From Myxococcales bacterium (GTDB lineage: Bacteria > Myxococcota_A > Polyangia > Nannocystales > Nannocystaceae), in NCBI GenBank assembly GCA_020633315.1, contig JACKDV010000004.1, forward strand, positions 384,071 to 448,070: a DNA stretch of 64,000 nucleotides. Direction: 5' to 3'. The notes beneath the pieces are model-generated. The model saw only the letters and a program-made list of their open reading frames with translations. It made no database searches and was not told where the DNA came from. Position numbers and translations under genes: made by a program. Within the stretch, counting starts at the first letter, position 1. The number at the start of each line of letters is the position of its first letter. Shown here piece by piece: positions 4,278 to 22,841 of the stretch.

Positions 4278-4982
4278 ATGGTATATCGCCCGGCCATGAC
4301 CCGCGGCCCCGCCCTCGTCGCAGCATCGCTCCTGTTCGTGACCGCCTGCGGCGACGACGGCTCGTCGGCCACCGATGGCCCCGGCCCCACCTCGGGCCCG
4401 GCGAGCACCAGCGGCAGCGCCACCGACGGAGGGGAGACCGACCCCAGCGGCCCGAGCTCCGACGACCCCTCCCTCACCGACTCGGGCTCGGACGCCGCGA
4501 CCTCGGCCCCGCCCACCGGCGACGACACCGGCAGCGCCGACACCAGCCCGGTGGAGCCGGGCGGCGGCACCATCGACGTCACCCTCGACGGCTGCGCCAT
4601 CGACTTCGGCGGCACCGTGGTGGTCACCTACAACGGCTCGCTGGGCGTGGCCTCGGTCTACGACGGCGGCGCCACCCTCAGCGGGAGCTTCCAATTCGAC
4701 CTGAGCGGGACCGGCACCATGGAGCTGTCCTCGCAGCACCGCGTGGACACGGGCAACGTGATCAACATGGTGGAGCTGAGCGCCGGCACCTGGACCAACC
4801 TCGACGCCGACGCGCTCACCGGCGGGATCGACCGCATCGGCGGCACGCTGGTGGTCTCGGCCTGGGACCCCGCCCAGGGCGTGGCCGACCTCGAGCTCCA
4901 GGGCGTCTCGCTGCTCAACGTGGTCGACGGCTCGGTCTGCACCATCGACGGGACCATCGTCACCGAGGAGCTGTACCCGTAG
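4278..4982 (+). CDS. Hypothetical lipoprotein.
   Basis: 'MTRGPALVAASLLFVTAC' signal plus lipobox, an Asp/Ser/Gly-rich linker and a C-terminal domain. An alternative start lies at 4296. Confidence 0.55.
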   Translation: MVYRPAMTRGPALVAASLLFVTACGDDGSSATDGPGPTSGPASTSGSATDGGETDPSGPSSDDPSLTDSGSDAATSAPPTGDDTGSADTSPVEPGGGTIDVTLDGCAIDFGGTVVVTYNGSLGVASVYDGGATLSGSFQFDLSGTGTMELSSQHRVDTGNVINMVELSAGTWTNLDADALTGGIDRIGGTLVVSAWDPAQGVADLELQGVSLLNVVDGSVCTIDGTIVTEELYP

Positions 4983-4988
4983 GCTCGC

Positions 4989-6332
4989 CTACGCGGCCAC
5001 CTCCTGCGTGGGCTCGAGCTCGCCCGACACCCCGCCGAAGCAGCGCGCGTACCAGCGGTTGAGGAACACCCCGTGCGGATCGAAGGCCGCCCGGGTGGCC
5101 TCCCACTGCCGCCACCGCGGGTGCCTTCGCGCGGGCCGGCGATCGCTCGCGGGGATCACCTTGGCCCAGTGCGCCCGCGCCTCGTACGAGTAGGCCAGCC
5201 GCACCAGGGCGTCCACCACCGGGGCCGCGGCTACCGCATCGAACACGTTGAGGTTGAGCCACGCCGTCTCCCGCCCGTCGTTGGGCGCCAGTGCCATGTC
5301 GATCGCGGGGCTGAAGCGCACCTGCACCTCGATCGCCGCGCTGCGTCGATCCTCCTGCATCAGGGCGATCGCCTCGCGCAGGCAGGCCGCGGCGCGGGCC
5401 CGCGGCAGCGCCAGCTCGATCTCGTCGTGCGGCGGCGCGAAGCCCCGCGAGTCGTAGGTGAGCCCGCGGTACCAGGGCGAGACCCGCGAGGGTCGCTCCG
5501 AGGCCTCCACGTAGGCGTGCCCCAGCACCTCCCACACCCGGGTGCTCAGCGCGGTCGGCATGCGCGAGGCCGGGTAGGCGGCCACCGTCCGGTTCACCGC
5601 CCACAGCCGCGTGGCCTCGATCGATTGCCGCAGCCGATCGCGCCACGACGGCGGGCCGGGCTCCACGTCCCACTGCCCCACCAGCGCCCGCGGCACCGAG
5701 CCGGCCCAGCGCAGGTCCACGAGATCGTGCCGCTCGAGCGCCGCCAGGGCCCGCTCGACCGCCTCCTCGCGGGGCACCGCGTGCTTGTGCTGCCGCACGA
5801 AGAAGAACGGGCGGCACTGCAGGGTGAGCTCGGTGATGATCCCGAACAGGCCCAGGGTCACCTGGCGCAGGGCGGCGCCCTCGAGCACCCGCGGCTCGCC
5901 GCGGCCGTCGACGAGGCGCATGCGCACCACCGACTCGGGCAGGGTCTGGCGGTAGCGTCCGCTGGTGCCGTGGGTCGCGGTGCTGGTGACTCCGGCCACC
6001 GTCTGCTCCATCCAGGCCCCGATGTTGGGCAGCGCCAGGCCGAAGCGCTCGAGCACCCGTACCAGCCGGTGGAGCGGCATCCCGCCCTGCACCGTGATCT
6101 GCATGCGCTCGCGGTCCACCTGCAGCACCCGGTGGAAGCGCGAGAGCTCGATCATCAGGTCGTCGGTGGTCCAGATTCGACCGAAGCTGTGGCGCGCTCC
6201 CACCACCTTCACCCGTCGTCCCTCGCGAGCGGCCCGCCGAACCAGGCGACACAGCTCGGGCTCGCTGGTGGGACGCAGGATCTCGGCCGGGCTCGCCCAC
6301 ACGCGGCCGCACCAGTTGGCGATACGTGGCAT
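4989..6332 (-). CDS. FAD-linked oxidase, D-arabinono-1,4-lactone / L-gulonolactone oxidase family.
   Basis: N-terminal FAD-binding PCMH region 'VKVVGARHSF', 'TVQGGMPLHRLVRVLERFGLALPNIG', plus an ALO-like C-terminal domain. The start was trimmed to 'MPRIANWCGRVW'. Confidence 0.8.
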   Translation of the reverse strand: MPRIANWCGRVWASPAEILRPTSEPELCRLVRRAAREGRRVKVVGARHSFGRIWTTDDLMIELSRFHRVLQVDRERMQITVQGGMPLHRLVRVLERFGLALPNIGAWMEQTVAGVTSTATHGTSGRYRQTLPESVVRMRLVDGRGEPRVLEGAALRQVTLGLFGIITELTLQCRPFFFVRQHKHAVPREEAVERALAALERHDLVDLRWAGSVPRALVGQWDVEPGPPSWRDRLRQSIEATRLWAVNRTVAAYPASRMPTALSTRVWEVLGHAYVEASERPSRVSPWYRGLTYDSRGFAPPHDEIELALPRARAAACLREAIALMQEDRRSAAIEVQVRFSPAIDMALAPNDGRETAWLNLNVFDAVAAAPVVDALVRLAYSYEARAHWAKVIPASDRRPARRHPRWRQWEATRAAFDPHGVFLNRWYARCFGGVSGELEPTQEVAA

Positions 6333-6496: not shown

Positions 6497-7426
6497 TCAC
6501 ACGGCACCGTGGGCGATCGCCTGGGCCACCGTCTCGGCCTGGATCTCGGGGTAGCGCGCGTTGAGGACGGGGCCGAGCAGCGCCTTGCCCCCGTACATCC
6601 CGCGGGCATACATCAGCGGCAGCCAGGCCATCATGTTGCGGGGCTCGGCCGCCATGCGCCGCTCGATCTCCTGGGCCAGCTCCTCGAGCGAGCCGAGGCG
6701 CTCGCGGGTCACCGTCCGGCCATGCGCCTGCTCCCAGGTCCGGGCGAAGGTGAGGATGTCCATGCGATCGCCCCGCACGTACAGCCTCTCGGGCACGGGC
6801 CGCTCGTCGAGCGCGGCCGCGGCGGTGAAGCGAGCCGTGTCCTCCCAGGTGGTCCAGTCGATCGGCGTGGTGCCGTCGCCCCAGTAGCGCACCACCCCGC
6901 GCTCGGCGTCGAGCGCCCCCAGGAAGCCGAGCACGAAGGCATCGGCGAAGATCCCCTGCATCACGTGCACCACCTCGAACGCGTCGCCCGGCTCCGGGCG
7001 CGCCTGCACGGCGAAGGCACGGCGCCAGTCGGAGTTGAGGTTGACGCCCTCGGGTAACGAGAAGAAGTCGAAGGAGTAGGCCGAGGCGATGAAGCGGCGG
7101 GCGCCCGCCCGCTTGGCCGCGCGCATCAGCGAGAGCTGGGCGTCGACGATCACCTCGGGGCCGCCCTGCAGGGCAGAGACCACCGAGTACGCCCCGCGCA
7201 CGACCTCGGCTCGGGCCTCGTCGCTGGCCGCGACCGCATCGAAGCCGGCGAGCTCCACCCCCTCGCGCACCAGCCCCTCGACCTTGGGATCATCGGGGTC
7301 GCGCACGAGCGCCCGCACGGTGACCCCGGGGTGCGCGAGCAGGGAATCGACGAGGAGACGGCCGAGGCGACCGGTGGCTCCGGCCACCACCACCAGCGTG
7401 TCGGAAGGACTGGACGAGCGCTTCAT
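6497..7426 (-). CDS. NmrA-like NAD(P)-binding oxidoreductase (atypical SDR).
   Basis: 'VVVAGATGRLGRLLV' Rossmann motif and the NmrA/isoflavone-reductase-like layout. Its stop overlaps the downstream FAD-oxidase start, so the two form an operon. Confidence 0.75.
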   Translation of the reverse strand: MKRSSSPSDTLVVVAGATGRLGRLLVDSLLAHPGVTVRALVRDPDDPKVEGLVREGVELAGFDAVAASDEARAEVVRGAYSVVSALQGGPEVIVDAQLSLMRAAKRAGARRFIASAYSFDFFSLPEGVNLNSDWRRAFAVQARPEPGDAFEVVHVMQGIFADAFVLGFLGALDAERGVVRYWGDGTTPIDWTTWEDTARFTAAAALDERPVPERLYVRGDRMDILTFARTWEQAHGRTVTRERLGSLEELAQEIERRMAAEPRNMMAWLPLMYARGMYGGKALLGPVLNARYPEIQAETVAQAIAHGAV

Positions 7427-7452
7427 GTCGTCGAGCGTGCGCCCTGCGATCG

Positions 7453-7466
7453 GTGATGACAATCAC
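7453..7466. promoter_or_regulatory. Dyad-symmetric GTGAT-N4-ATCAC site, a candidate LysR box in the divergent promoter region.
   Basis: Perfect inverted repeat 'gtgatgacaatcac' in the 70-nt region between the divergently transcribed LysR gene and the NmrA/FAD-oxidase operon. Confidence 0.35.
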
Positions 7467-7496
7467 TCCAAATCCGAACAGACTGTCAGACTCAGC

Positions 7497-8429
7497 ATGA
7501 CGATCTCGATTCCCCCGGCCGACATGCTCCTGTTCGCCACCGTGGTGCGCGAGGGCAGCTTCACCCGCGCCGCGCAGCAGCTGGGCGTGACCAAGCAGAC
7601 CGTCAGCGAGCGCATCGCTCGGCTGGAGGAGCGACTGGGAGTGCGGCTGCTCGAGCGCACCACCCGGCGCCTGCGTCCCACCGAGCCGGGCACGCTGTAC
7701 TACGAGCGCTGCTCGGCCATCGCCGTGCAGATCGACGAGGCCAACGCGGAGGTGCGGCGCCGCCAGGCCGAGCCGGTGGGGAGCCTGCGCGTGTCTGCCC
7801 CGGTGCTCTACGGCCGGCGCTACCTCGCGCCGGTGGTGGCCGAGTTCCTGTGCGCGCACCCCAAGACCCGGGTGGAGCTGCTGCTCGCCGACCGCCGCGT
7901 GGACCTCATCGAGGAGGGCTTCGACGTGGCCATCCGCATCGGCACGATGGACGACTCCTCGCTGACGGCGCGCAAGCTCGGCGAGGGCCACGTGTACTGC
8001 GTGGCGAGCCCGGGCTTCCTGGCCGAGCACGGCCGCCCCACCCTCCGCTCGCTGCGTGGGCTCCGCTGCGTGGGGCTCCGGCCCGTCGAGACCTGGGAGC
8101 TCGGCGGCACCCGGCACAAGATGGAGCCGGTGCTGGTGGTCAACGACTTCGAGGTGGCCTGCGACGCCGCGATCGCGGGCGTGGGCGTGGCGCTGCTGCC
8201 CTCGATCGTGTGCCGCCACGCGGTGGCCGACGGCCGGCTACGGGTGGTGCTCGGTCCGCAGCCGGCGTTCGTGCTCCCCGTGGTCGCGCTCTACCCGAGC
8301 CGCCGGCACCTCCCGGCCAAGGTCCGCCTGTTCGTCGATGCGCTCGCGACCATGATCGAGCCGATGCAGCCGCTCGGCCTCCGACCGGCCGCCTCGCGCC
8401 GCCGCTCGAGCAAGCGGGCCCCTCGCTAG
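7497..8429 (+). CDS. LysR-family transcriptional regulator.
   Basis: N-terminal wHTH 'LLFATVVREGSFTRAAQQLGVTKQTVSERIARLEERLGVRLLER' plus a LysR substrate-binding domain. Divergent from its likely target operon. Confidence 0.85.
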   Translation: MTISIPPADMLLFATVVREGSFTRAAQQLGVTKQTVSERIARLEERLGVRLLERTTRRLRPTEPGTLYYERCSAIAVQIDEANAEVRRRQAEPVGSLRVSAPVLYGRRYLAPVVAEFLCAHPKTRVELLLADRRVDLIEEGFDVAIRIGTMDDSSLTARKLGEGHVYCVASPGFLAEHGRPTLRSLRGLRCVGLRPVETWELGGTRHKMEPVLVVNDFEVACDAAIAGVGVALLPSIVCRHAVADGRLRVVLGPQPAFVLPVVALYPSRRHLPAKVRLFVDALATMIEPMQPLGLRPAASRRRSSKRAPR

Positions 8430-16848: not shown

Positions 16849-18074
16849 GCATCTGGATGTCCACCGCTGTGGCGGCCGCGGCTGCGGCCGTGGCCGCGCC
16901 CGAGCCGGCGCCCCCGGTCGAGACCATCGAGTACACGATCCGCAAGGGAGACACCTGCGCCAAGATCGCGACCGAGCGCTACGGCGACCGCAAGCACTTC
17001 GAGGTGATCCACCAGTACAACCGCTGGCTGGGACCCACGATGCCGCACCACCTCGAGGAGGGGCAGGTGCTGATCCTGCCCAAGACCCTGCCCCCCGAGC
17101 TGCCCGACGCCGAGGTCACCGCGGCGCGGCGCAAGGTGGAGGCCCGACCGCCCGAGGCCGCCCAGTGGAGCAGCGCCCGCCCGGGCCTCGACCTCTACCG
17201 CGGCTGGCGGGTCAACACGCAGGAGCGTGCCTCGGCCGAGATCACCTTCCGCGACTACTCCCGGATCGAGATGCGGGAGAACACCCTGGTGATCATCTAC
17301 GGGGGCTCGCGCAGCCGCAGCCGGCGCGAGACCACCGAGGCCACCCTCGATCGCGGGGCCCTGCGCGCGCGCCTGGGCGCCTACACGGGCAAGACCAGCG
17401 AGAGCGAGGTGACGGTGACCACCCCCTCGGCAGTGGCCGAGCTCGAGGGCGGCACCAGCCTCGTCACCGTCGACGACGGGGGCACCAGCCGGGTGGCCAA
17501 CCATGGCGACGGCAAGGCGAAGGTGGGCTCGTCGACCGGAGGCGGGGCCAAGGTGAAGGTGGGCCCCAAGATGGGCTCCAAGGTGGTCAAGGGCGAGCGG
17601 CCCTCCGCCGCGCGTCCGCTGCCGCCCACGCCGGTGTGGAGCGGACGCATGGCGACCACCTTCGTCGCCGCCGGCGGGCGGGGGACCATCCGCGGGAGCT
17701 GGGCGCCGGCGGAGAAGGCCGCGCGCTATCGGGTGGAGATCGCCAGCCAGCCCGACGGTCGCGAGCTGGTGGCCAGCCAGACCGTGCCGGCCACGATCAA
17801 CCGCTTCGAGGCCCAGGGCCTGCCTGCGGGCGACTACTACGTGAGCGTGGCGGCGATCGACGACGACGACTTCGAGAGCCCGCCCTCCGATCACCGCAAG
17901 CTCAGCCTGGTCTCGGTGCCCCTGCTCACCCCCGGCGGCGCGCCGCTGCCCGAGCCCGACGCCGCCGCCGAGCCCAGCACCACGCCCTCCCGCGTGCTGC
18001 GGGGCACCCGGCTCGACTTCCGCTGGGCCTGCGCTGCCGCGTGGACGCGGGCGAGCCCTCGCGCCAGCCGGTGA
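16845..18074 (+). CDS. LysM + FecR-like + FN3-like envelope protein. Appears interrupted by a frameshift at ~18024-18040 and probably continues into the next feature.
   Basis: ATG overlaps the kinase stop (ATGA). LysM 'YTIRKGDTCAKIA..GQVLILP'. An FN3-like 'RYRVEIASQPDGRE..GDYYVSVAAID'. The frame ends in a junk-like tail 'ACAAAWTRASPRASR'. Confidence 0.55.
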   Translation: MSIWMSTAVAAAAAAVAAPEPAPPVETIEYTIRKGDTCAKIATERYGDRKHFEVIHQYNRWLGPTMPHHLEEGQVLILPKTLPPELPDAEVTAARRKVEARPPEAAQWSSARPGLDLYRGWRVNTQERASAEITFRDYSRIEMRENTLVIIYGGSRSRSRRETTEATLDRGALRARLGAYTGKTSESEVTVTTPSAVAELEGGTSLVTVDDGGTSRVANHGDGKAKVGSSTGGGAKVKVGPKMGSKVVKGERPSAARPLPPTPVWSGRMATTFVAAGGRGTIRGSWAPAEKAARYRVEIASQPDGRELVASQTVPATINRFEAQGLPAGDYYVSVAAIDDDDFESPPSDHRKLSLVSVPLLTPGGAPLPEPDAAAEPSTTPSRVLRGTRLDFRWACAAAWTRASPRASR

Positions 18075-19057
18075 TCGACTCCACCGGCGAGCACACCGTG
18101 GCCTGCGTCACCGACGACGGCGTGGAGGTGCCCGGCTTCACCGTGCTCGCCATCGACGTCCAGATCGCCGCGGCCCGGGCCGAGGGCGCGATGCGGGGCG
18201 TGACCAGCGAGGCCAGCTTCACCCTCGACGCATCGATCCCGCTGCCCCGTCGCGTGTGGGTGGAGGCTCCCGCGGGCTTCTTGGTCGACACCCCCCGCGC
18301 TGGCGCGACGCCGGGGCAGTGGACGGTGTCGGTGCACCCCGACCAGGACGCCCCCGCCGAGGCCTCGCTGCGGGTGATGGCCGAGGCCGGCGGCACCGAG
18401 GTGGAGCTCGGTGAGATCCCGGTGGCGGTGGCCGAGCCGTCCTCGACGAGCCCCGTCACGCCCGAGACGAGCCCCGAGCCGCGCGGGCCCGAGCGGCACA
18501 TGTTCGAGCTGGGCGTGTGGGGCGGGGTGATGCTCCCCTCCTCCAATCACGACCTGTTCCAGGAGCGCTTCTCCAACGTCCCAGGGATCACGCTGGTGGA
18601 GCACCAGGCCCTGCGCCGCGCCGCGCCCGATCTCGGCATCCGCCTGGGCTACTACCCGATCCGCTGGGTGGGCGTGGAGCTCGAGCATGCGCTGGTCCCC
18701 ACCCGCACCCGCGACACCGGCGACCGGGCCACCGTCTTCGCCATCCGCGGGCAGGTGCTGGGGCAGCTCCCCTGGCGGGTGACCCCCACCGTGCACCTCG
18801 GCGGGGGTGCGCTGGGCGTGAGCGCCGGGCAGGTGCTCGGCCGCGACATCGATCGGGCGCTGCACTTCGGCGTGGGGGTGAAGGCCTACCTGGTCCGCTG
18901 GGCCGCGCTGCGCCTCGATCTGCGCGACGTGATCACCGAGGGTCACTCGGGCGGGGCCGCGCACTCCCCCGAGATCCTCGTGGGCGTGGCCGGCGTGATC
19001 GGCCGCCGCAGCGCAGCATCGCCCACCGGTCGCCGCCTGCGACCAGCCCGGCCGTAG
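18041..19057 (+). CDS. Ig-like domain + 8-strand OmpA-like beta-barrel. Probably the C-terminal continuation of 16845..18074, in the -1 frame.
   Basis: No signal peptide of its own. Its frame is open back to 17165. The beta-barrel 'HMFELGVWGGVMLPS...LRLDLRDVI...HSPEILVGV' is paralogous to the N-terminus of the downstream OmpA. Confidence 0.45.
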   Translation: MDAGEPSRQPVIDSTGEHTVACVTDDGVEVPGFTVLAIDVQIAAARAEGAMRGVTSEASFTLDASIPLPRRVWVEAPAGFLVDTPRAGATPGQWTVSVHPDQDAPAEASLRVMAEAGGTEVELGEIPVAVAEPSSTSPVTPETSPEPRGPERHMFELGVWGGVMLPSSNHDLFQERFSNVPGITLVEHQALRRAAPDLGIRLGYYPIRWVGVELEHALVPTRTRDTGDRATVFAIRGQVLGQLPWRVTPTVHLGGGALGVSAGQVLGRDIDRALHFGVGVKAYLVRWAALRLDLRDVITEGHSGGAAHSPEILVGVAGVIGRRSAASPTGRRLRPARP

Positions 19058-19136: not shown

Positions 19137-20615
19137 ATGCTCCGCGCCTCGCTCCCCTTCGCGTCGGCTCTCCTGCTCGCCCTGGCCTCGGTCCCCGCCG
19201 CGGCCAAGGAACCCGCCGCCTCGGGCGACGCCGAGGCCGAGGCCGAGGTCTCGCTGGGCAAGGGAGGCCGCGAGGCGAAGGCCGAGCGACGCGCTCGCGG
19301 CGAGCCGGGCACGCGCAGCGATCGACCCTGGGCCAAGCGCTGGGCCCCCGAGGATCACCAGGTGGAGGTGGGCCTGTACGGCGGCGTGTTCCTGCCCTCG
19401 CGCCGCCTCGAGCTGTTCCAGGCCGACTTCTCGCTGGTGGACCAGGGCTACAAGCCCTTCGCCCGCGTGGCGCCCGACTTCGGCGTGCGCGTGGGCTACT
19501 ACCCGCTACGCTTCTTCGGCATCGAGGGCGAGGGCGGAGCGATGCCCTCGCGCACCACCACCGGCGACGCCGCCCTGATGTGGACGGCCCGGGCCAACCT
19601 CGTGGGTCAGCTCGGCCTGTGGAGCGTGACGCCCTTCGTGCTCGTGGGCGGCGGGCTGATCGGCGTGGCCAGCGATCGCAGCTCGGTGGGCAACGACGTC
19701 GACGCCTCGGCCCACGTGGGCGTGGGTGCGAAGGTGTTCCTCAGCCGCTACACCGCGCTGCGCCTCGACCTGCGCGACGTGATCGCGGCCCGACGCGGCT
19801 ACCACGAGGGCGTGGTGCACTCGCCCGAGATCCTGCTCGGCCTGAGCATCACCCTCGGCCGCGCCCGCGACGAGGCCCCGCCCCCGCCCCCCGACTCCGA
19901 CGGCGACGGCATCCTCGACCCCGACGACGCGTGCAAGGACGAGCCCGGCGTCCCCGACTACCGCGGCTGCCCCATCCCCGACTCCGACGGCGACGGCGTC
20001 CTCGACCCCGACGACGAGTGCAAGGACGAGCCCGGCGTCCCCGACTACCACGGCTGCCCCATCCCCGACTCCGACGGCGACGGCGTCCTCGACCCCGACG
20101 ACGAGTGCAAGGACGAGCCCGGCGTCCCCGACTACCGCGGCTGCCCCATCCCCGACTCCGACGGCGACGGCATCCTCGATCCCGACGACGCGTGCAAGGA
20201 CGAGCCCGAGACCAACAACGGCTTCCAGGACACCGACGGCTGCCCCGACGAGATCCCCGAGGAGGTCGCTCGCTTCACCGGGGTGATCGAGGGCATCTTC
20301 TTCGAGAACGACAGCGCCACCATCCGCCCGCGCTCGCGGCCCACCCTCGACAAGGCGCTCGAGGTGCTGCGCAAGCACGAGTCGGTGCGGGTGGAGGTCA
20401 GCGGCCACACCGACGATCGCGGCAAGCCCGAGCACAACCTCGAGCTCAGCCGCCGCCGCGCCGAGTCGGTCAAGCAGTACCTGGTGGAGGAGGGGATCGA
20501 CCCCGCCCGCATCACCACGCGCGGCGCGGGGCCCAGCGAGCCCATCGCCGACAACGGCAACAAGCGGGGCCGCGCCAAGAACCGGCGCATCGAGTTCAAG
20601 CTGCTCACCGAGTAG
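19137..20615 (+). CDS. OmpA-family outer-membrane protein: N-terminal 8-strand beta-barrel, 4 thrombospondin type-3 Asp-rich repeats, C-terminal OmpA domain.
   Basis: Signal 'LLLALASVPAAA'. TSP3 repeats 'PIPDSDGDGVLDPDDECKDEPGVPDY'. OmpA motifs 'VEVSGHTDDRG', 'NLELSRRRAESV', 'NRRIEFKL'. Confidence 0.9.
   Translation: MLRASLPFASALLLALASVPAAAKEPAASGDAEAEAEVSLGKGGREAKAERRARGEPGTRSDRPWAKRWAPEDHQVEVGLYGGVFLPSRRLELFQADFSLVDQGYKPFARVAPDFGVRVGYYPLRFFGIEGEGGAMPSRTTTGDAALMWTARANLVGQLGLWSVTPFVLVGGGLIGVASDRSSVGNDVDASAHVGVGAKVFLSRYTALRLDLRDVIAARRGYHEGVVHSPEILLGLSITLGRARDEAPPPPPDSDGDGILDPDDACKDEPGVPDYRGCPIPDSDGDGVLDPDDECKDEPGVPDYHGCPIPDSDGDGVLDPDDECKDEPGVPDYRGCPIPDSDGDGILDPDDACKDEPETNNGFQDTDGCPDEIPEEVARFTGVIEGIFFENDSATIRPRSRPTLDKALEVLRKHESVRVEVSGHTDDRGKPEHNLELSRRRAESVKQYLVEEGIDPARITTRGAGPSEPIADNGNKRGRAKNRRIEFKLLTE
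19891..20238 (+). repeat. Near-identical 87-bp direct tandem repeat x4 (encodes the 29-aa TSP3 units).
   Basis: 'cccgactccgacggcgacggc(a/g)tcctcgaccccgacgacg(c/a)gtgcaaggacgagcccggcgtccccgactacc(g/a)cggctgccccatc' recurs at 19891, 19978, 20065 and 20152, with only a few substitutions until the fourth copy diverges after ~60 nt. Confidence 0.8.
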
Positions 20616-20936
20616 CGCGATCGCGCCGCGGATTGCCGCGCTCCACGCTCCGTTGCGGGTGAGCAGATCACGCGCCGAAGCTTCGGTAGATCGCCTCGCG
20701 ATTGAGCAATGGCAGCCACGCCGACCCGCACCGATCCCCACAAAAACCCCAGCGAGCAGCCGTGAGCCAGTCAGAGTGTGCGGCACACTGCGTTTTGTGC
20801 TTGCACAAAGGGTACGAAGGACCGCACGATCGAGCCGTCCGGCCTCCCAGGGATGTGCATCTTGCGCACACGGGAGTCCCTTCGGGGTCACCGGCACTGC
20901 CCATGCCACAGGCCAGCGACCCCGCCACGAATTACA

Positions 20937-21130
20937 GCGCGACCGTGGTCACCGCTCGGGTCACATTTGGGGGCGACCCGGGCGGTGGCCCCTTTTCGAC
21001 CCCTTTCCTCGGGGTCAGTGCCGACTTCCCTCGCGTCAGCTAGAGTTACTGCGACCGAGGTCGCCGCTCGGACCTATTTTTGGGGGCGGTCCGGGCGGCG
21101 GCCGCTTTTTCGTCGGCCGCCGCGACCTCG
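20937..21130. repeat. Two copies of a ~55-60-nt GC-rich structured intergenic element between convergent OmpA genes.
   Basis: Copy A 'gcgaccgtggtcaccgctcgggtcacatttgggggcgacccgggcggtggcc'. Copy B 'gcgaccgaggtcgccgctcggacctatttttgggggcggtccgggcggcggcc'. Both hold 'gacc-N3-ggtc' and 'ccg-ct-cgg' mini-palindromes. Copy B is followed by a 9-bp-stem hairpin 'cggcggccg-ctttttcgt-cggccgccg'. Confidence 0.4.
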
Positions 21131-21132
21131 GC

Positions 21133-22671
21133 TCACTGCACCTTGAACTCGATGCGTCGGTTCTTGGCGCGACCGGACTTGGTCTTGTTGTCCGCGATCG
21201 GCTCGTCGGGCCCGGCCCCACGCGTGCTGATCCGATTGTCGGCCACGCCCTTGTCGACCAGGTACTGCTTGACCGACTCGGCACGCCGGCGGCTGAGGTC
21301 CATGTTGTCGTCGCGGCTGCCCACGTCGTCGGTGTGGCCGCTGATCTCCACCCGCACCGAGTCGTACTTGACCAGCACGCTGGCCACCTTGTCGAGCTTG
21401 CGCTTGGAGGTCTTGCGGATCGTGTCCTTGCCGGTGGCGAACTCGATGCCCTCGAGCACGCCCTCGAACTGGGTGATCTCGGCGGGGAGCTCGTCGGGGC
21501 AGCCGTCGGTGTCCTCGAAGCCGTTGTAGTTCTCGGGCTTGTCCTCGCACGCGTCGTCCACATCGAGGATGCCGTCGCCGTCCTTGTCGGGGACCGGGCA
21601 GCCGTCGGCCCCGTCGCCCCACTCGTTGGGGCAGGCGTCGCTGCGATCGGGCACGCCGTCGTTGTCGGAGTCGCGGTTGAGCGGGCAGCCGTCCTCGTCC
21701 TCGCCGTACTCGTCGGGACACTCGTCGTAGTAGTCGGCGATCGTGTCGCCGTCGCGATCGCTCCGCTTGGCTCGCCACTCCTCGCCGATCCACTTGGTGA
21801 GGCGGATGTTCACCTCGGCCCCCACCAGCAGCTCGCCGTGGTGGGCCCGGTTGCCGTCGATGCTCGAGCCGGTGACGATGTGGCGCCCGTCGATGCGGAC
21901 GGCGATCCAGTCGTTGATGTAGAACTTGGCCCCGGGGCCCCAGTGGAACGCCGGGTCGCCGCCGTTGAGGATGGCGGCGTCCTTGGACTTGAGCGCCAGC
22001 AGGCCGCCGCCCACGGCCAGGGTGGGCGTGAGGCGGTAGGGCAGCGAGCCGATCACGTGGCCCCGCACCGCATAGAAGGTGCCCTTGGCCCCGCCCGGCA
22101 CGCTGTCGCTCGAGGTGGGCATGATCGACGACTCGAAGCCCACGCCCACGTAGGGGATCACCATGTACTCGAGGTGGAAGCCGAAGTCGAAGTTGCCGCG
22201 CCGGATGCTGGGCTGCGGACCCTCGGAGCGGTCGAACAGGCCGTGGTTGTTCGCGCGCCAGAAGCCACCGAGGTGGAAGCCCGCGTTGATCATGTGGTTG
22301 GTGGGCCTATAGCGCTCGAAGAACGGACGCTCGTCCTTCTCCTTGGGCTTCTTGTCGCCCTTGTCCTTCTTGCTGCGCTTGGCCTTGCCCTTCGCCTTGC
22401 CCTTGCCGCCGCCGCCGAGGCTCACCGAGCCGCTGGCCGAGCCCGAGGCCGACGCCCCGGGGGCCTCCTCCTCGTCCTCGCCCTCGAGCGGATCGTCGTA
22501 CTCCTCCTCGGCATCGCTGCCCTCGAGATCGTCGTACTCGTCGTCCTCGATGATCTCGTCGTCCTCCTCGGGCTGGGCGTGGGCGAGCTCGGGGATCGCG
22601 ACCAGGCCCAGGCCCAGGGCGAGCGCCAGCACGCGGGAGGAATCGGACGAGCGAGGAGGCGTGTGCGTCAT
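21133..22671 (-). CDS. OmpA-family outer-membrane protein with an acidic linker, Lys-rich segment, beta-barrel, TSP3 repeats and C-terminal OmpA domain.
   Basis: Signal 'VLALALGLGLVAIPELAHA'. 'DRDGDTIADYYDECPDE', 'DSDNDGVPDRSDACP', 'DKDGDGILDVDDACED'. OmpA 'VEISGHTDDVG', 'NMDLSRRRAESV', 'NRRIEFKV'. Confidence 0.85.
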   Translation of the reverse strand: MTHTPPRSSDSSRVLALALGLGLVAIPELAHAQPEEDDEIIEDDEYDDLEGSDAEEEYDDPLEGEDEEEAPGASASGSASGSVSLGGGGKGKAKGKAKRSKKDKGDKKPKEKDERPFFERYRPTNHMINAGFHLGGFWRANNHGLFDRSEGPQPSIRRGNFDFGFHLEYMVIPYVGVGFESSIMPTSSDSVPGGAKGTFYAVRGHVIGSLPYRLTPTLAVGGGLLALKSKDAAILNGGDPAFHWGPGAKFYINDWIAVRIDGRHIVTGSSIDGNRAHHGELLVGAEVNIRLTKWIGEEWRAKRSDRDGDTIADYYDECPDEYGEDEDGCPLNRDSDNDGVPDRSDACPNEWGDGADGCPVPDKDGDGILDVDDACEDKPENYNGFEDTDGCPDELPAEITQFEGVLEGIEFATGKDTIRKTSKRKLDKVASVLVKYDSVRVEISGHTDDVGSRDDNMDLSRRRAESVKQYLVDKGVADNRISTRGAGPDEPIADNKTKSGRAKNRRIEFKVQ

Positions 22672-22841
22672 GAGGTGGCTCCGAGAGACGTCGACGCTGG
22701 GCACACCGGAGTGTCGGGGCTTTGCCCCCCGTCTCGGCCGTGCACCTACATCGTCACGCTACACGGCTCGTCCGTCACCGGTCAATCCCGCTCGGACGCC
22801 GATGGGCCCGCGAGCCCATGCCCCGGCTCGCCCCGACGGTG

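Follow-up and report, generated by a model that had tools for sequence, protein, structure and literature searches.

Paired hairpin modules between convergent OmpA genes as a putative tandem small-RNA locus of Myxococcota

Organization of the locus

The window, i.e., the whole 64-kb stretch of DNA analyzed here, contains a 517-bp spacer (20616-21132) between two convergent genes, and both flanks matched the Pfam OmpA family (PF00691), in agreement with the original prediction. The upstream gene, OmpA-1 (19137-20615, plus strand), is an open reading frame with matches to PF00691 and PF13505, and its layout comprises an N-terminal β-barrel, four TSP3-like repeats and the OmpA peptidoglycan-binding domain. 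The downstream gene, OmpA-2 (21133-22704, minus strand), is an open reading frame with a match to PF00691 and an N-terminal β-barrel. Both genes point at the spacer; their promoters therefore lie elsewhere. No canonical OmpA-1 terminator was conserved in the proximal spacer (the first 100 nt past the OmpA-1 stop codon), and a scan for tRNA and tmRNA genes returned nothing. Within the spacer, we found two related units on the plus strand, unit A (20925-20996) and unit B (21041-21110), and the OmpA-2 stop codon is 22 nt from the T-run of unit B.

Both units, with their order kept, were present at 12 syntenic Myxococcota loci (the window, L001-L004, L008, L009, L012, L025, L040, L047 and L052). 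The unit pair was always located 3' of the OmpA-1 (barrel) gene; this location, between convergent genes, equally fits 3'-UTR or terminator elements. The OmpA-1 orthologues shared 63-87% identity, and the syntenic spacers of the relatives were approximately 435-600 bp long, which is comparable to the 517 bp found here. Ten of the 12 loci had a syntenic OmpA-2; in L008 it was truncated by the end of the contig, and Paraliomyxa (L009) lacked it. The genome of Paraliomyxa miuraensis has retained the pair (orthologous units at 6402-6623 of L009, minus strand) and the upstream block despite the loss of OmpA-2 and the reduction of OmpA-1 to its barrel. The persistence of the pair in this genome suggests that it is independent of OmpA-2.

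Architecture of the two repeat units

Each unit starts with a conserved 5' segment that is unpaired, followed by a 16-bp hairpin, whose U3G5 loop is conserved, and a T-run. In unit A, the 5' segment CCACGAAUUACAGCGCGACCGU (20925-20946, plus strand) was near-invariant in the aligned A units and predicted to be unpaired, and it represents a candidate seed or processing site. The hairpin and putative terminator of unit A (20947-20996, plus strand) showed a covariance model score of 91.1 bits (E 6e-21) and a folding energy of -35.5 kcal/mol; its 5' arm (20947-20962) is followed by the loop ACAUUUGGGGGC (20963-20974), the 3' arm (20975-20990), CC and then UUUU at 20993-20996. Unit B has the same arrangement on the plus strand. 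Its conserved 5' segment UAGAGUUACUGCGACCGA (21041-21058), predicted by folding to be unpaired, leads into a hairpin and putative terminator (21059-21110; 85.7 bits, E 1.5e-19; -36.1 kcal/mol) with a 5' arm at 21059-21074, the loop UAUUUUUGGGGGC at 21075-21087 and a 3' arm at 21088-21103, after which GC precedes UUUUU at 21106-21110. The consensus of the 5' segment in both modules is ..GArUUAc(a)GCGACCG., and the stem is G+C-rich, contains two G-U wobbles whose positions are fixed, and carries the conserved apical loop (A)UUUGGGGGC. The hairpins of the two units differ from each other by three compensatory changes.

The direct repeats that had been reported at 20937-20990 and 21046-21100 were recovered as two families, D1 and D2, with 77-87% identity and a spacing of 112-113; for their 25-nt core pattern, 0 chance matches are expected in the 64-kb window. 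The mini-palindromes described within these repeats (gacc-N-ggtc and ccg-ct-cgg) are present, but they are parts of the 16-bp hairpin and its 5' flank, the main structure, which had been overlooked. Judged from sequence, both units have the form of an intrinsic (Rho-independent) terminator, with a 16-bp stem and a T4 or T5 run within 2 nt. A T-run was located 3' of all 22 aligned units on the plus strand, and the U-runs were short in some of them (3-5 U). The terminator scan flagged only small sub-hairpins rather than the unit stems because its loop limit was 8 nt.

Covariation, strand and coding potential

The alignment supports the helix. The 16 stem pairs were formed in 98.6% of 351 cells, compared with 32-50% when the partner column was slid by 1-3 positions. 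Double changes occurred at four pairs (29 cells), the observed covariation score was reached by none of 500 shuffles, and RNAalifold independently found the same helix. The plus strand is fixed by 46 G-U/U-G cells, which would turn into A-C mismatches if read on the minus strand. The reverse strand scored approximately 20 bits with the covariance model, and the minus-strand folds of both units had interrupted stems, with energies of -33.7 versus -35.5 kcal/mol for unit A (centroid, -27.4 versus -35.0) and -31.5 versus -36.1 kcal/mol for unit B. The suggestion that the units are bidirectional terminators was not supported, since T-runs occur on the plus side only, the 5' flank (GCGACCG) is not A-rich and the conserved G-U/U-G pairs become A-C on the minus strand.

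The loop length varied by 1, 2 or 3 nt among the units (alignment columns 42-46). Coding is excluded because the 1- and 2-nt loop indels break any reading frame. This rules out a small protein-coding gene, for which mechanically called open reading frames crossing the units had made a candidate.

Conservation and distribution

In the covariance model search (cmsearch), ten units among the matches listed scored 59-92 bits, and no further copy was found in the 64-kb window or in approximately 200 kb of the loci; the paralogous OmpA loci L049, L050 and L051, used as negative controls, had no element. The spacer outside the units barely aligned among the relatives. Within the units, conservation of the loop and the 5' flank equaled that of the stem: the loop motif TTTGGGGGC was found in 20 of the 22 units, and the 5' flank GCGACCG was conserved at at least 90%. 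The conserved loop has disappeared from unit A of L004 and is therefore not essential in every case.

The two units also carry copy-specific base pairs. At columns 30/67, all A units have A-U and all B units have G-C; at columns 40/57, U-A is found in 10 of 11 A units and C-G in every B unit. These A- and B-specific pairs indicate that the duplication is older than the divergence of these genomes and that both copies have since been retained.

An exact-pattern scan of 185,579 GTDB species genomes, a set that excludes the source genome of the window, revealed one tandem pair per genome in Myxococcota. Outside Myxococcota, the scan gave 12 single matches, all of which were devoid of the 5' arm. 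No copy matched in Nannocystis, Plesiocystis, Enhygromyxa or Haliangium, where divergent copies would escape the pattern. A metagenome scan with a two-arm pattern returned 25 stretches, two of which were genuine (L025 and L040), and the rest were chance matches in coding DNA. Rfam 15 had no family for the window at gathering scores; when the spacer with 300 nt on either side was searched at E values up to 10, two chance-level matches of 14-15 bits appeared, compared with thresholds of 45 and 145. No described small RNA (sRNA) of this clade was found in the literature.

Conserved features upstream of unit A

A conserved block, GATCCmACmAAA(g/a)C (20733-20747, plus strand), was present in most of the aligned spacers, including that of L052; it may belong to the OmpA-1 3' UTR or serve as a regulator site preceding a promoter-like block. 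The promoter-like block itself (20791-20831, plus strand) was conserved in an in-register alignment and is located approximately 100 nt upstream of unit A. It consists of a T-tract (20793-20796), a -35-like TTGCAC (20801-20806) and a -10-like CACGAT (20825-20830). The pattern TTGCnn-N17-GCAsGATC was in register in 11 of the 12 loci, and the window has N18; this 18-nt spacer contains CGAAGG and shows partial conservation of its own, an unusual trait in a simple promoter. From these sequence features, we infer that the block acts as a promoter, with a putative transcription start near 20836-20838. A consensus promoter scan yielded 0 sites; it did not flag the block because only 6 of the 12 positions of the E. 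coli sigma-70 consensus are matched. Sigma-32, sigma-28 and ECF-type readings of the block fitted poorly. Unit A alone is preceded by a conserved promoter-like block, and no conserved promoter was found for unit B.

The two dyads that had drawn attention to this region, AGTGTGC-G-GCACACT (20775-20789) and TTTGTGC-TT-GCACAAA (20794-20809), are both present, and the promoter-like block contains the latter. Their reading as a tandem operator gained no support from conservation. Dyad 1 is genome-specific and lies in a stretch whose alignment columns are not conserved, and dyad 2 is a dyad in some relatives only, its conserved part being the T-tract and TTGC, which fits the -35-like element.

Downstream of the promoter-like block, folding revealed a hairpin, CTCCC...TGTGC-ATCTTGC-GCACA...GGGAG (20844-20876, plus strand), at the putative 5' end of the RNA, and all loci were predicted to form a hairpin here. 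The window hairpin corresponds by orthology to the TGGCATGTGCGTTGCA motif of the relatives, which resembles a sigma-54 -24/-12 promoter. A second, variable linker hairpin formed by an inverted repeat (20883-20924, plus strand) was found in the "long" loci and was missing from four "short" loci; the distance from the -10-like element to unit A was 105-123 nt in the former and 59-61 nt in the latter. When folded from the implied start, every locus gave a 5' hairpin, an unpaired conserved segment and a terminator hairpin.

Proposed interpretation as a pair of small RNAs

Among the readings offered by the original prediction, we favor a small-RNA locus, to which the 12 loci, the covarying hairpin, the strand-specific G-U pairs, the T-runs and the upstream promoter-like block point at the sequence level. 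We consider it fairly likely that the spacer encodes two ancient paralogous small-RNA modules on the plus strand, each with an intrinsic terminator, and that these act as follows. Transcription would start from the promoter-like block at 20791-20831, approximately 100 nt before unit A, pass through the 5' hairpin at 20844-20876 and stop at terminator A, giving an RNA of approximately 160 nt. The RNA of unit B would arise from read-through to terminator B or from a separate start. The RNAs would then act in trans, with either the loop or the conserved unpaired segment engaged in base-pairing, or alternatively through a protein that recognizes the two near-identical hairpins. Such action would proceed without Hfq, as myxobacteria are reported to have no hfq homologue (PMC5684412), and the pair is probably both trans-acting and Hfq-independent. 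When seed A, seed B and the loop were each scanned for targets by duplex energy across the 64-kb window, the self-antisense site was the sole one to stand out.

The units could instead be cis elements only, namely tandem intrinsic terminators or 3'-end stabilizers of a long OmpA-1 3' UTR that insulate the convergent genes, with no free regulatory RNA made. The hairpins and T-runs do lie on the OmpA-1 strand, always 3' of the OmpA-1 (barrel) gene; no canonical terminator occurs in the first 100 nt past the OmpA-1 stop codon, and unit B ends 22 nt from that of OmpA-2. However, a terminator needs just a stem and a U-run, whereas in these units near-invariance extends to the loop and to 20 nt of 5' flank, across genomes with OmpA-1 proteins of only 63-70% identity. 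The conserved loop and 5' flank thus suggest more than a terminator. Moreover, two distinct paralogues have been retained since before the genomes diverged, a conserved promoter-like block and a 5' hairpin are situated between OmpA-1 and unit A, and the pair has outlived both OmpA-1 truncation and OmpA-2 loss in Paraliomyxa, so we regard a purely cis-acting role as rather unlikely. A variant that keeps the same sRNA pair and differs from our favored explanation only in the promoter places a sigma-54 element (TGGCAT-N5-TTGCA) approximately 40-100 nt upstream of unit A, as for the myxobacterial sRNA Pxr, with the upstream conserved block or the dyads as the site of an enhancer-binding protein. 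At the orthologous position, L001, L002, L012 and L052 match the sigma-54 consensus perfectly and four further loci show 2 mismatches; the background is 0.016 per kb for matches with at most 1 mismatch. In the "short" loci the implied start would fall approximately 10-20 nt before the conserved unpaired segment, and a sigma-54 activator gene is found nearby in L003. The motif is nevertheless lost in 4 of the 12 loci, including the window, yet the hairpin potential at this place is kept in all of them. No enhancer-binding-protein gene is conserved in the neighborhood of the loci, and the upstream block would be just ~45-50 bp from the -24 element. This variant appears unlikely, and for the window itself we rejected a sigma-54 promoter: the consensus TGGCAC-N5-TTGCW had no match with at most 1 mismatch, and the GG-to-GC spacing is 11 instead of 10.

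Binding at the DNA level was also considered, with GCGACC-N2-GGTCGC at the unit starts and the TGTGC..GCACA dyads serving as operators through which a dimeric regulator would control the OmpA genes. In six B units, GCGACCGAGGTCGC is a perfect 14-bp palindrome, and three GTGC..GCAC dyads occur inside an 80-bp stretch of the window spacer, which is above the background of 0.47 per kb. Single dyads are nonetheless at chance density (41 in 64 kb compared with ~50 in Markov simulations), dyad 1 is unconserved, and the flanking genes converge on the spacer with their promoters elsewhere. DNA binding would also leave the strand-asymmetric G-U pairs and the compensatory changes of the long helix unexplained, and we consider operators very unlikely. 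A REP/BIME-like dispersed repeat, another mobile element or a small protein-coding gene has practically no plausibility. Tandem imperfect palindromes between convergent genes do look like BIMEs, and mechanically called open reading frames cross the units. The proposed REP-like family is refuted, however, because the element occurs once per genome: the 185,579 species genomes gave a single tandem pair each where it was present, at an orthologous position in every genome, and neither pattern nor model scans found copies beyond that pair, with no other model match in the 64-kb window. A coding role founders on the loop indels of 1-2 nt, which break the reading frame.

Comparison with known small RNAs

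OmrA/OmrB, PrrF1/PrrF2 and Qrr1-5 are sibling (tandem paralogous) bacterial sRNAs. The pair described here resembles them in that homologous short RNAs would lie adjacent in one intergenic region and end in intrinsic-terminator hairpins, with a conserved unpaired potential seed. Pairs of the OmrA/B or PrrF1/2 type consist of adjacent homologous sRNA genes that each have a promoter and a terminator; of these features, we found homology, adjacency and two putative terminators, and the promoter-like block before unit A only. OmrA/B also share a link to outer-membrane proteins, which here consists of gene neighborhood only. In contrast to these systems, our pair has no sequence or Rfam similarity to them, and its hosts are reported to lack Hfq (PMC5684412). 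The terminator loop is conserved here, which is untypical there, and unit B has no recognizable promoter of its own.

MicL and DapZ are 3'-UTR-associated sRNAs with an internal promoter. The likeness lies in the location on the same strand downstream of a protein gene, an own (here putative) promoter and a terminator end, and MicL additionally has a tie to envelope proteins. The putative promoter is, however, in the spacer and not within the coding sequence, and the sRNA of the window may not share the OmpA-1 terminator.

The protein-sequestering sRNAs CsrB, RsmY and RsmZ are built of repeated hairpins. They share with our units the repetition of near-identical hairpins with a conserved apical loop motif, although only two modules are present here and the loop is UUUGGGGGC, not the GGA of CsrA sites. 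In a speculative model that we regard as unlikely, the 16-bp stem, the fixed G-U wobbles and the UUUGGGGGC loop would form a bipartite platform for an RNA-binding protein, as a decoy or chaperone-docking RNA. If this were true, the locus would represent an Hfq-independent post-transcriptional circuit in marine myxobacteria, which might govern outer-membrane or envelope proteins, the pair being tied to OmpA-family genes.

Pxr is the one characterized myxobacterial sRNA in the literature that we found (PMC5684412). Its gene is flanked by nla19, which encodes a sigma-54 response regulator, and by an NADH dehydrogenase gene, and Pxr occurs in Cystobacterineae only (PMC5568312, which has the PrrF tandem pair among its references). 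Pxr of Myxococcus and Cystobacter shares the phylum and an intergenic location with our pair, and tandem paralogues occur in Cystobacter (PMC5568312, PMC5684412). It has a multi-stem-loop fold with a conserved 3' stem that is needed for accumulation (PMC5568312, PMC5684412). Its upstream sigma-54-type promoter has a comparable motif before unit A in some relatives, and both RNAs would be Hfq-independent. The differences include the OmpA neighbors and the Nannocystaceae/Paraliomyxa-like clade of the present locus, its two repeated modules rather than the SL1-SL3 fold, and the defective sigma-54 motif of the window. Identity with Pxr was rejected, given the OmpA neighbors and the lack of a window match to the complement of the 26-nt Pxr probe at up to 3 mismatches.

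The locus offers a second RNA family in the phylum, strongly conserved and structurally supported, that matches no catalogued RNA family. It comes from a different, poorly studied marine clade that includes the cultured Paraliomyxa miuraensis, and it gives a handle on sRNA function without Hfq in the phylum and on why two sister copies have persisted for so long. Should the link to the neighboring OmpA genes prove functional, the pair would also be an example of envelope-regulating sRNAs outside Gammaproteobacteria.

Additional hairpins near the units

The hairpins containing T-runs that had been noted at 20999-21018 and 21095-21123 both exist, but the one at 20999-21018 was not conserved in the relatives. 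The hairpin at 21095-21123, an inverted repeat of the form GCGGCGGCCG-CTTTTTCGT-CGGCCGCCGC, is an alternative to that of unit B, with which it shares the lower 3' arm, and it encloses the unit B T-run. A short equivalent of 4-11 bp was read from the sequences of most relatives, and this hairpin may fold at the 3' end of the OmpA-2 mRNA, transcribed from the minus strand.

Structure of the repeat units

The 517-bp spacer (20616-21132) separates two convergent OmpA-family genes, OmpA-1 (19137-20615, + strand) and OmpA-2 (21133-22704, - strand), each of which has a PF00691 match and an N-terminal β-barrel. The sequence features quoted in the original prediction were all located where it had placed them, with both dyads perfect, and its two direct repeats were recovered as families D1 and D2, which were 77-87% identical and spaced 112-113 nt apart. 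The chance expectation for the 25-nt repeat core within the window was zero. Each repeat was dominated by a 16-bp hairpin that had been overlooked, with arms at 20947-20962/20975-20990 in unit A (20925-20996) and at 21059-21074/21088-21103 in unit B (21041-21110). The stems of the two copies differed at three positions, and all three differences were compensated.

In an alignment of 22 units from the window and its relatives, the 16 stem pairs were formed in 98.6% of 351 cells, compared with only 32-50% of pairs when the 3' partner column was slid by 1-3 positions as a control. RNA folding and covariance analysis agreed with this result: RNAalifold gave the same helix, and the observed covariation score was reached by none of 500 shuffles. 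Both-sided changes were present at four stem pairs (29 cells); this signal is largely a fixed difference between A and B and thus represents few evolutionary events. Independent pair changes were found in unit A of relatives' loci L025 (G-C to A-U) and L001 (U-G to U-A plus G-C to G-U), and both C-G to U-G and U-G to U-A changes occurred in several units.

G-U or U-G pairs occupied 46 cells, with two positions being wobbles in 16/22 and 18/22 units. Because these 46 cells would be A-C mismatches on the minus strand, they point to a selected structure on the + strand. They also argue against the earlier suggestion of bidirectional terminators, as do the T-run, which followed every unit on the + strand only, and the 5' side, which was not A-rich; the hairpin and T-run resemble a one-way intrinsic terminator in their anatomy. 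Among units, the loop differed in length by 1, 2 and 3 nt, which excludes a conserved reading frame.

The same covarying positions set all A units apart from all B units, so the duplication is older than the split between these genomes, and both copies have been kept ever since. The loop TTTGGGGGC was present in 20/22 units and the 5' flank GCGACCG was conserved at a level of at least 90%, both being as conserved as the stem. The 5' flank was predicted to be unpaired and was longer in the A units (CACGArTTACAGCGCGACCG). Unit A of locus L004 (5722-5798) retained the T-run and a lower stem of 12 bp, with the conserved loop and upper stem replaced (ACCCCATCGACCGGCGACC), and unit A of L025 had GGGAGC in place of GGGGGC and lacked one nucleotide of the 3' arm. 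In that subclade, constraint therefore seems looser on unit A than on unit B.

Distribution and genomic context

The window has a G+C content of ~70% and originates from a Myxococcota bacterium. The closest match to a flanking protein (87% identity) was from a 'Myxococcales' metagenome-assembled genome, and the further relatives were Nannocystaceae genomes and Paraliomyxa miuraensis. Look-ups of OmpA-1 homologues revealed syntenic loci with the gene order kinase, FecR-barrel, OmpA-1, spacer and convergent OmpA-2, and with spacers of 435-600 bp. The neighbouring proteins were only 63-70% identical among relatives, and the spacer outside the units was hardly alignable. Units A and B were found in the same order in 12 independent loci (the window, L001, L002 (=L019), L003 (=L021), L004, L008 (=L048), L009, L012, L025, L040, L047 and L052), and none of the three paralogous OmpA loci (L049, L050 and L051) contained a unit.

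An exact-pattern scan for the loop-plus-3'-arm motif, using one genome per species from 185,579 species, revealed it as a tandem pair in Myxococcota alone, with a single pair per genome. In other phyla there were 12 single matches, which lay within coding DNA and had no 5' arm. Two more loci came from a metagenome scan. The 22 units were used to build a covariance model, which gave the units listed scores of 59-92 bits on the + strand, compared with ~20 bits on the reverse strand, and detected no further copies in the 64-kb window. With one pair per genome and the same order in 12 loci, the element is a single-locus, orthologously conserved element and not a dispersed repeat; the REP-like family considered in the original prediction was accordingly discarded.

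In every case, the pair was located downstream of the barrel gene OmpA-1. The OmpA-1 orthologue was barrel-only in L009 (Paraliomyxa miuraensis; 7025-7732, minus strand) and L040 (~1559-2239), without TSP3 repeats or an OmpA domain, and the pair was kept. In L009, the convergent OmpA-2 was missing, its place being taken by unrelated genes and an 89-bp tandem repeat. The pair and the conserved block upstream of it were nevertheless intact, which argues against a role tied to OmpA-2, and a pure 3'-UTR role is weakened by the neighbourhoods in L009 and L040. In the window, 22 nt separate the end of unit B from the stop codon of OmpA-2; OmpA-2 transcripts, if they reached so far, would be antisense to unit B and may have their 3' end at an alternative hairpin (21095-21123).

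Upstream region and dyads

The spacer alignment revealed a conserved upstream block (T-tract, TTGCnn, N17, GCAsGATC) in register at 11/12 loci, located at 20791-20831 in the window with an 18-nt spacer. The spacing fits a sigma-70-type -35/-10 pair (TTG...A..AT). The block matched the E. coli consensus at only 6/12 positions, was unreported by the consensus scan and also carried a conserved rAAAG in its spacer; we therefore treat it as a putative promoter. A second motif, 14-19 nt downstream, read TGGCATGTGCGTTGCA in several relatives, a perfect sigma-54 -24/-12 consensus. Across the 12 loci it was perfect in four, had two mismatches in four and was absent in four, including the window, where the GG-to-GC spacing was 11 and no sigma-54 site with up to one mismatch was found anywhere in the 64 kb. 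A hairpin was possible at this position in every locus, in differing sequences and registers, which favours a 5'-terminal hairpin of an RNA starting just past CACGAT; a sigma-54 start at the second motif is a live alternative.

The tandem operator proposed for dyad 1 (20775-20789) and dyad 2 (20794-20809) found no comparative support: dyad 1 lay in unconserved sequence, and dyad 2, which overlaps the conserved T-tract and TTGC, was a dyad in only some relatives. A third dyad, TGTGC-ATCTTGC-GCACA (20854-20870), had been missed; it is orthologous to the sigma-54-like/hairpin motif. Dyads with perfect 7-bp arms occurred at chance density (41 in 64 kb versus ~50 simulated), and three GTGC..GCAC dyads within 80 bp were above the background of 0.47 per kb. 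A genome-specific regulator might bind TGTGC..GCACA, which the three dyads within 100 bp of one spacer may reflect.

For an RNA starting past CACGAT, the linker between the 5' hairpin and unit A (0-75 nt, not conserved) would give 'short' RNAs of ~117 nt and 'long' RNAs of ~160-180 nt. No conserved promoter for unit B was found in the aligned loci; its RNA could result from transcription reading through terminator A, from processing at the sole A/U-rich island (GAGUUA) or from initiation at a weak promoter overlapping terminator A. Reading by eye located a TAyyyT motif at a fixed distance from terminator A in four loci.

Additionally, GATCCmACmAAAgC (20733-20747 in the window) was conserved ~55-60 nt upstream of the promoter-like block, with orthologous blocks in L001, L002, L004, L008, L012, L040 and L052. 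This sequence shows partial complementarity to UUUGGGGGC of the conserved loop, and L004 contained an exact GCCCCCAAAT nearby.

Functional interpretation

The equal conservation of loop, 5' flank and stem, next to diverged proteins and a hardly alignable spacer, indicates that the units are more than terminators. A conserved accessible segment followed by a terminator hairpin would correspond to the usual layout of trans-acting sRNAs; a protein-binding RNA would be served equally well by two near-identical hairpins whose length and wobbles are fixed and whose loop is conserved. The small-RNA locus was thus the earlier reading that agreed with the conserved, covarying, strand-specific tandem RNA modules. 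In our judgement, which was not computed, the units probably represent a selected + strand RNA structure, and the balance tips modestly towards putative free small RNAs; any specific mechanism is much less certain.

No Rfam family matched the spacer or the window as a whole, and literature searches turned up no published sRNA from this locus or clade. By layout, the nearest analogues are sibling sRNA pairs such as OmrA/B and PrrF1/2, and within the phylum it is Pxr, which has a sigma-54 promoter and tandem paralogues in Cystobacter and is confined to Cystobacterineae (PMC5568312). Pxr accumulation requires a conserved 3' stem, and an hfq homologue was not found in myxobacteria (PMC5684412). 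Identity of the pair with Pxr was rejected, as the neighbours, clade and fold differ and the Pxr probe sequence had no match. The tandem pair probably represents a new family of sibling sRNAs in a marine myxobacterial clade, one that would be clean and amenable to tests, with a narrow taxonomic range.

Other features of the locus

In relatives, one ORF of ~720-770 aa makes up the FecR-domain/β-barrel gene that lies upstream of OmpA-1. In the window (16923-19057), this gene was split over two reading frames with a junction near 18017-18020, reflecting a frameshift (pseudogene) or else an error in sequencing or assembly. OmpA-1 contained an 87-bp tandem repeat (19889-20208; 3.7 copies, 96% identity) encoding near-identical TSP3-like units, CPIPDSDGDGxLDPDDxCKDEPGVPDYxG, and this near-identity suggests recent expansion or concerted evolution. 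The 89-bp repeat of L009 (6177-6411, 2.6 copies) was directly 3' of unit B, at the usual place of OmpA-2, and included the palindrome CCCCCCTTTGGGGGG. In L012, a 14-bp tandem repeat GGTCGGATCAAGCC (5227-5330, 7.4 copies) lay just past unit B, and a 9-bp repeat (4743-4788, 5.1 copies) was present upstream in the same spacer. In L003 only, a sigma-54-dependent response regulator gene (1500-2876; Response_reg, Sigma54_activat and HTH_8) was located ~1.1 kb upstream of OmpA-1, replacing the kinase and FecR genes of the other loci.
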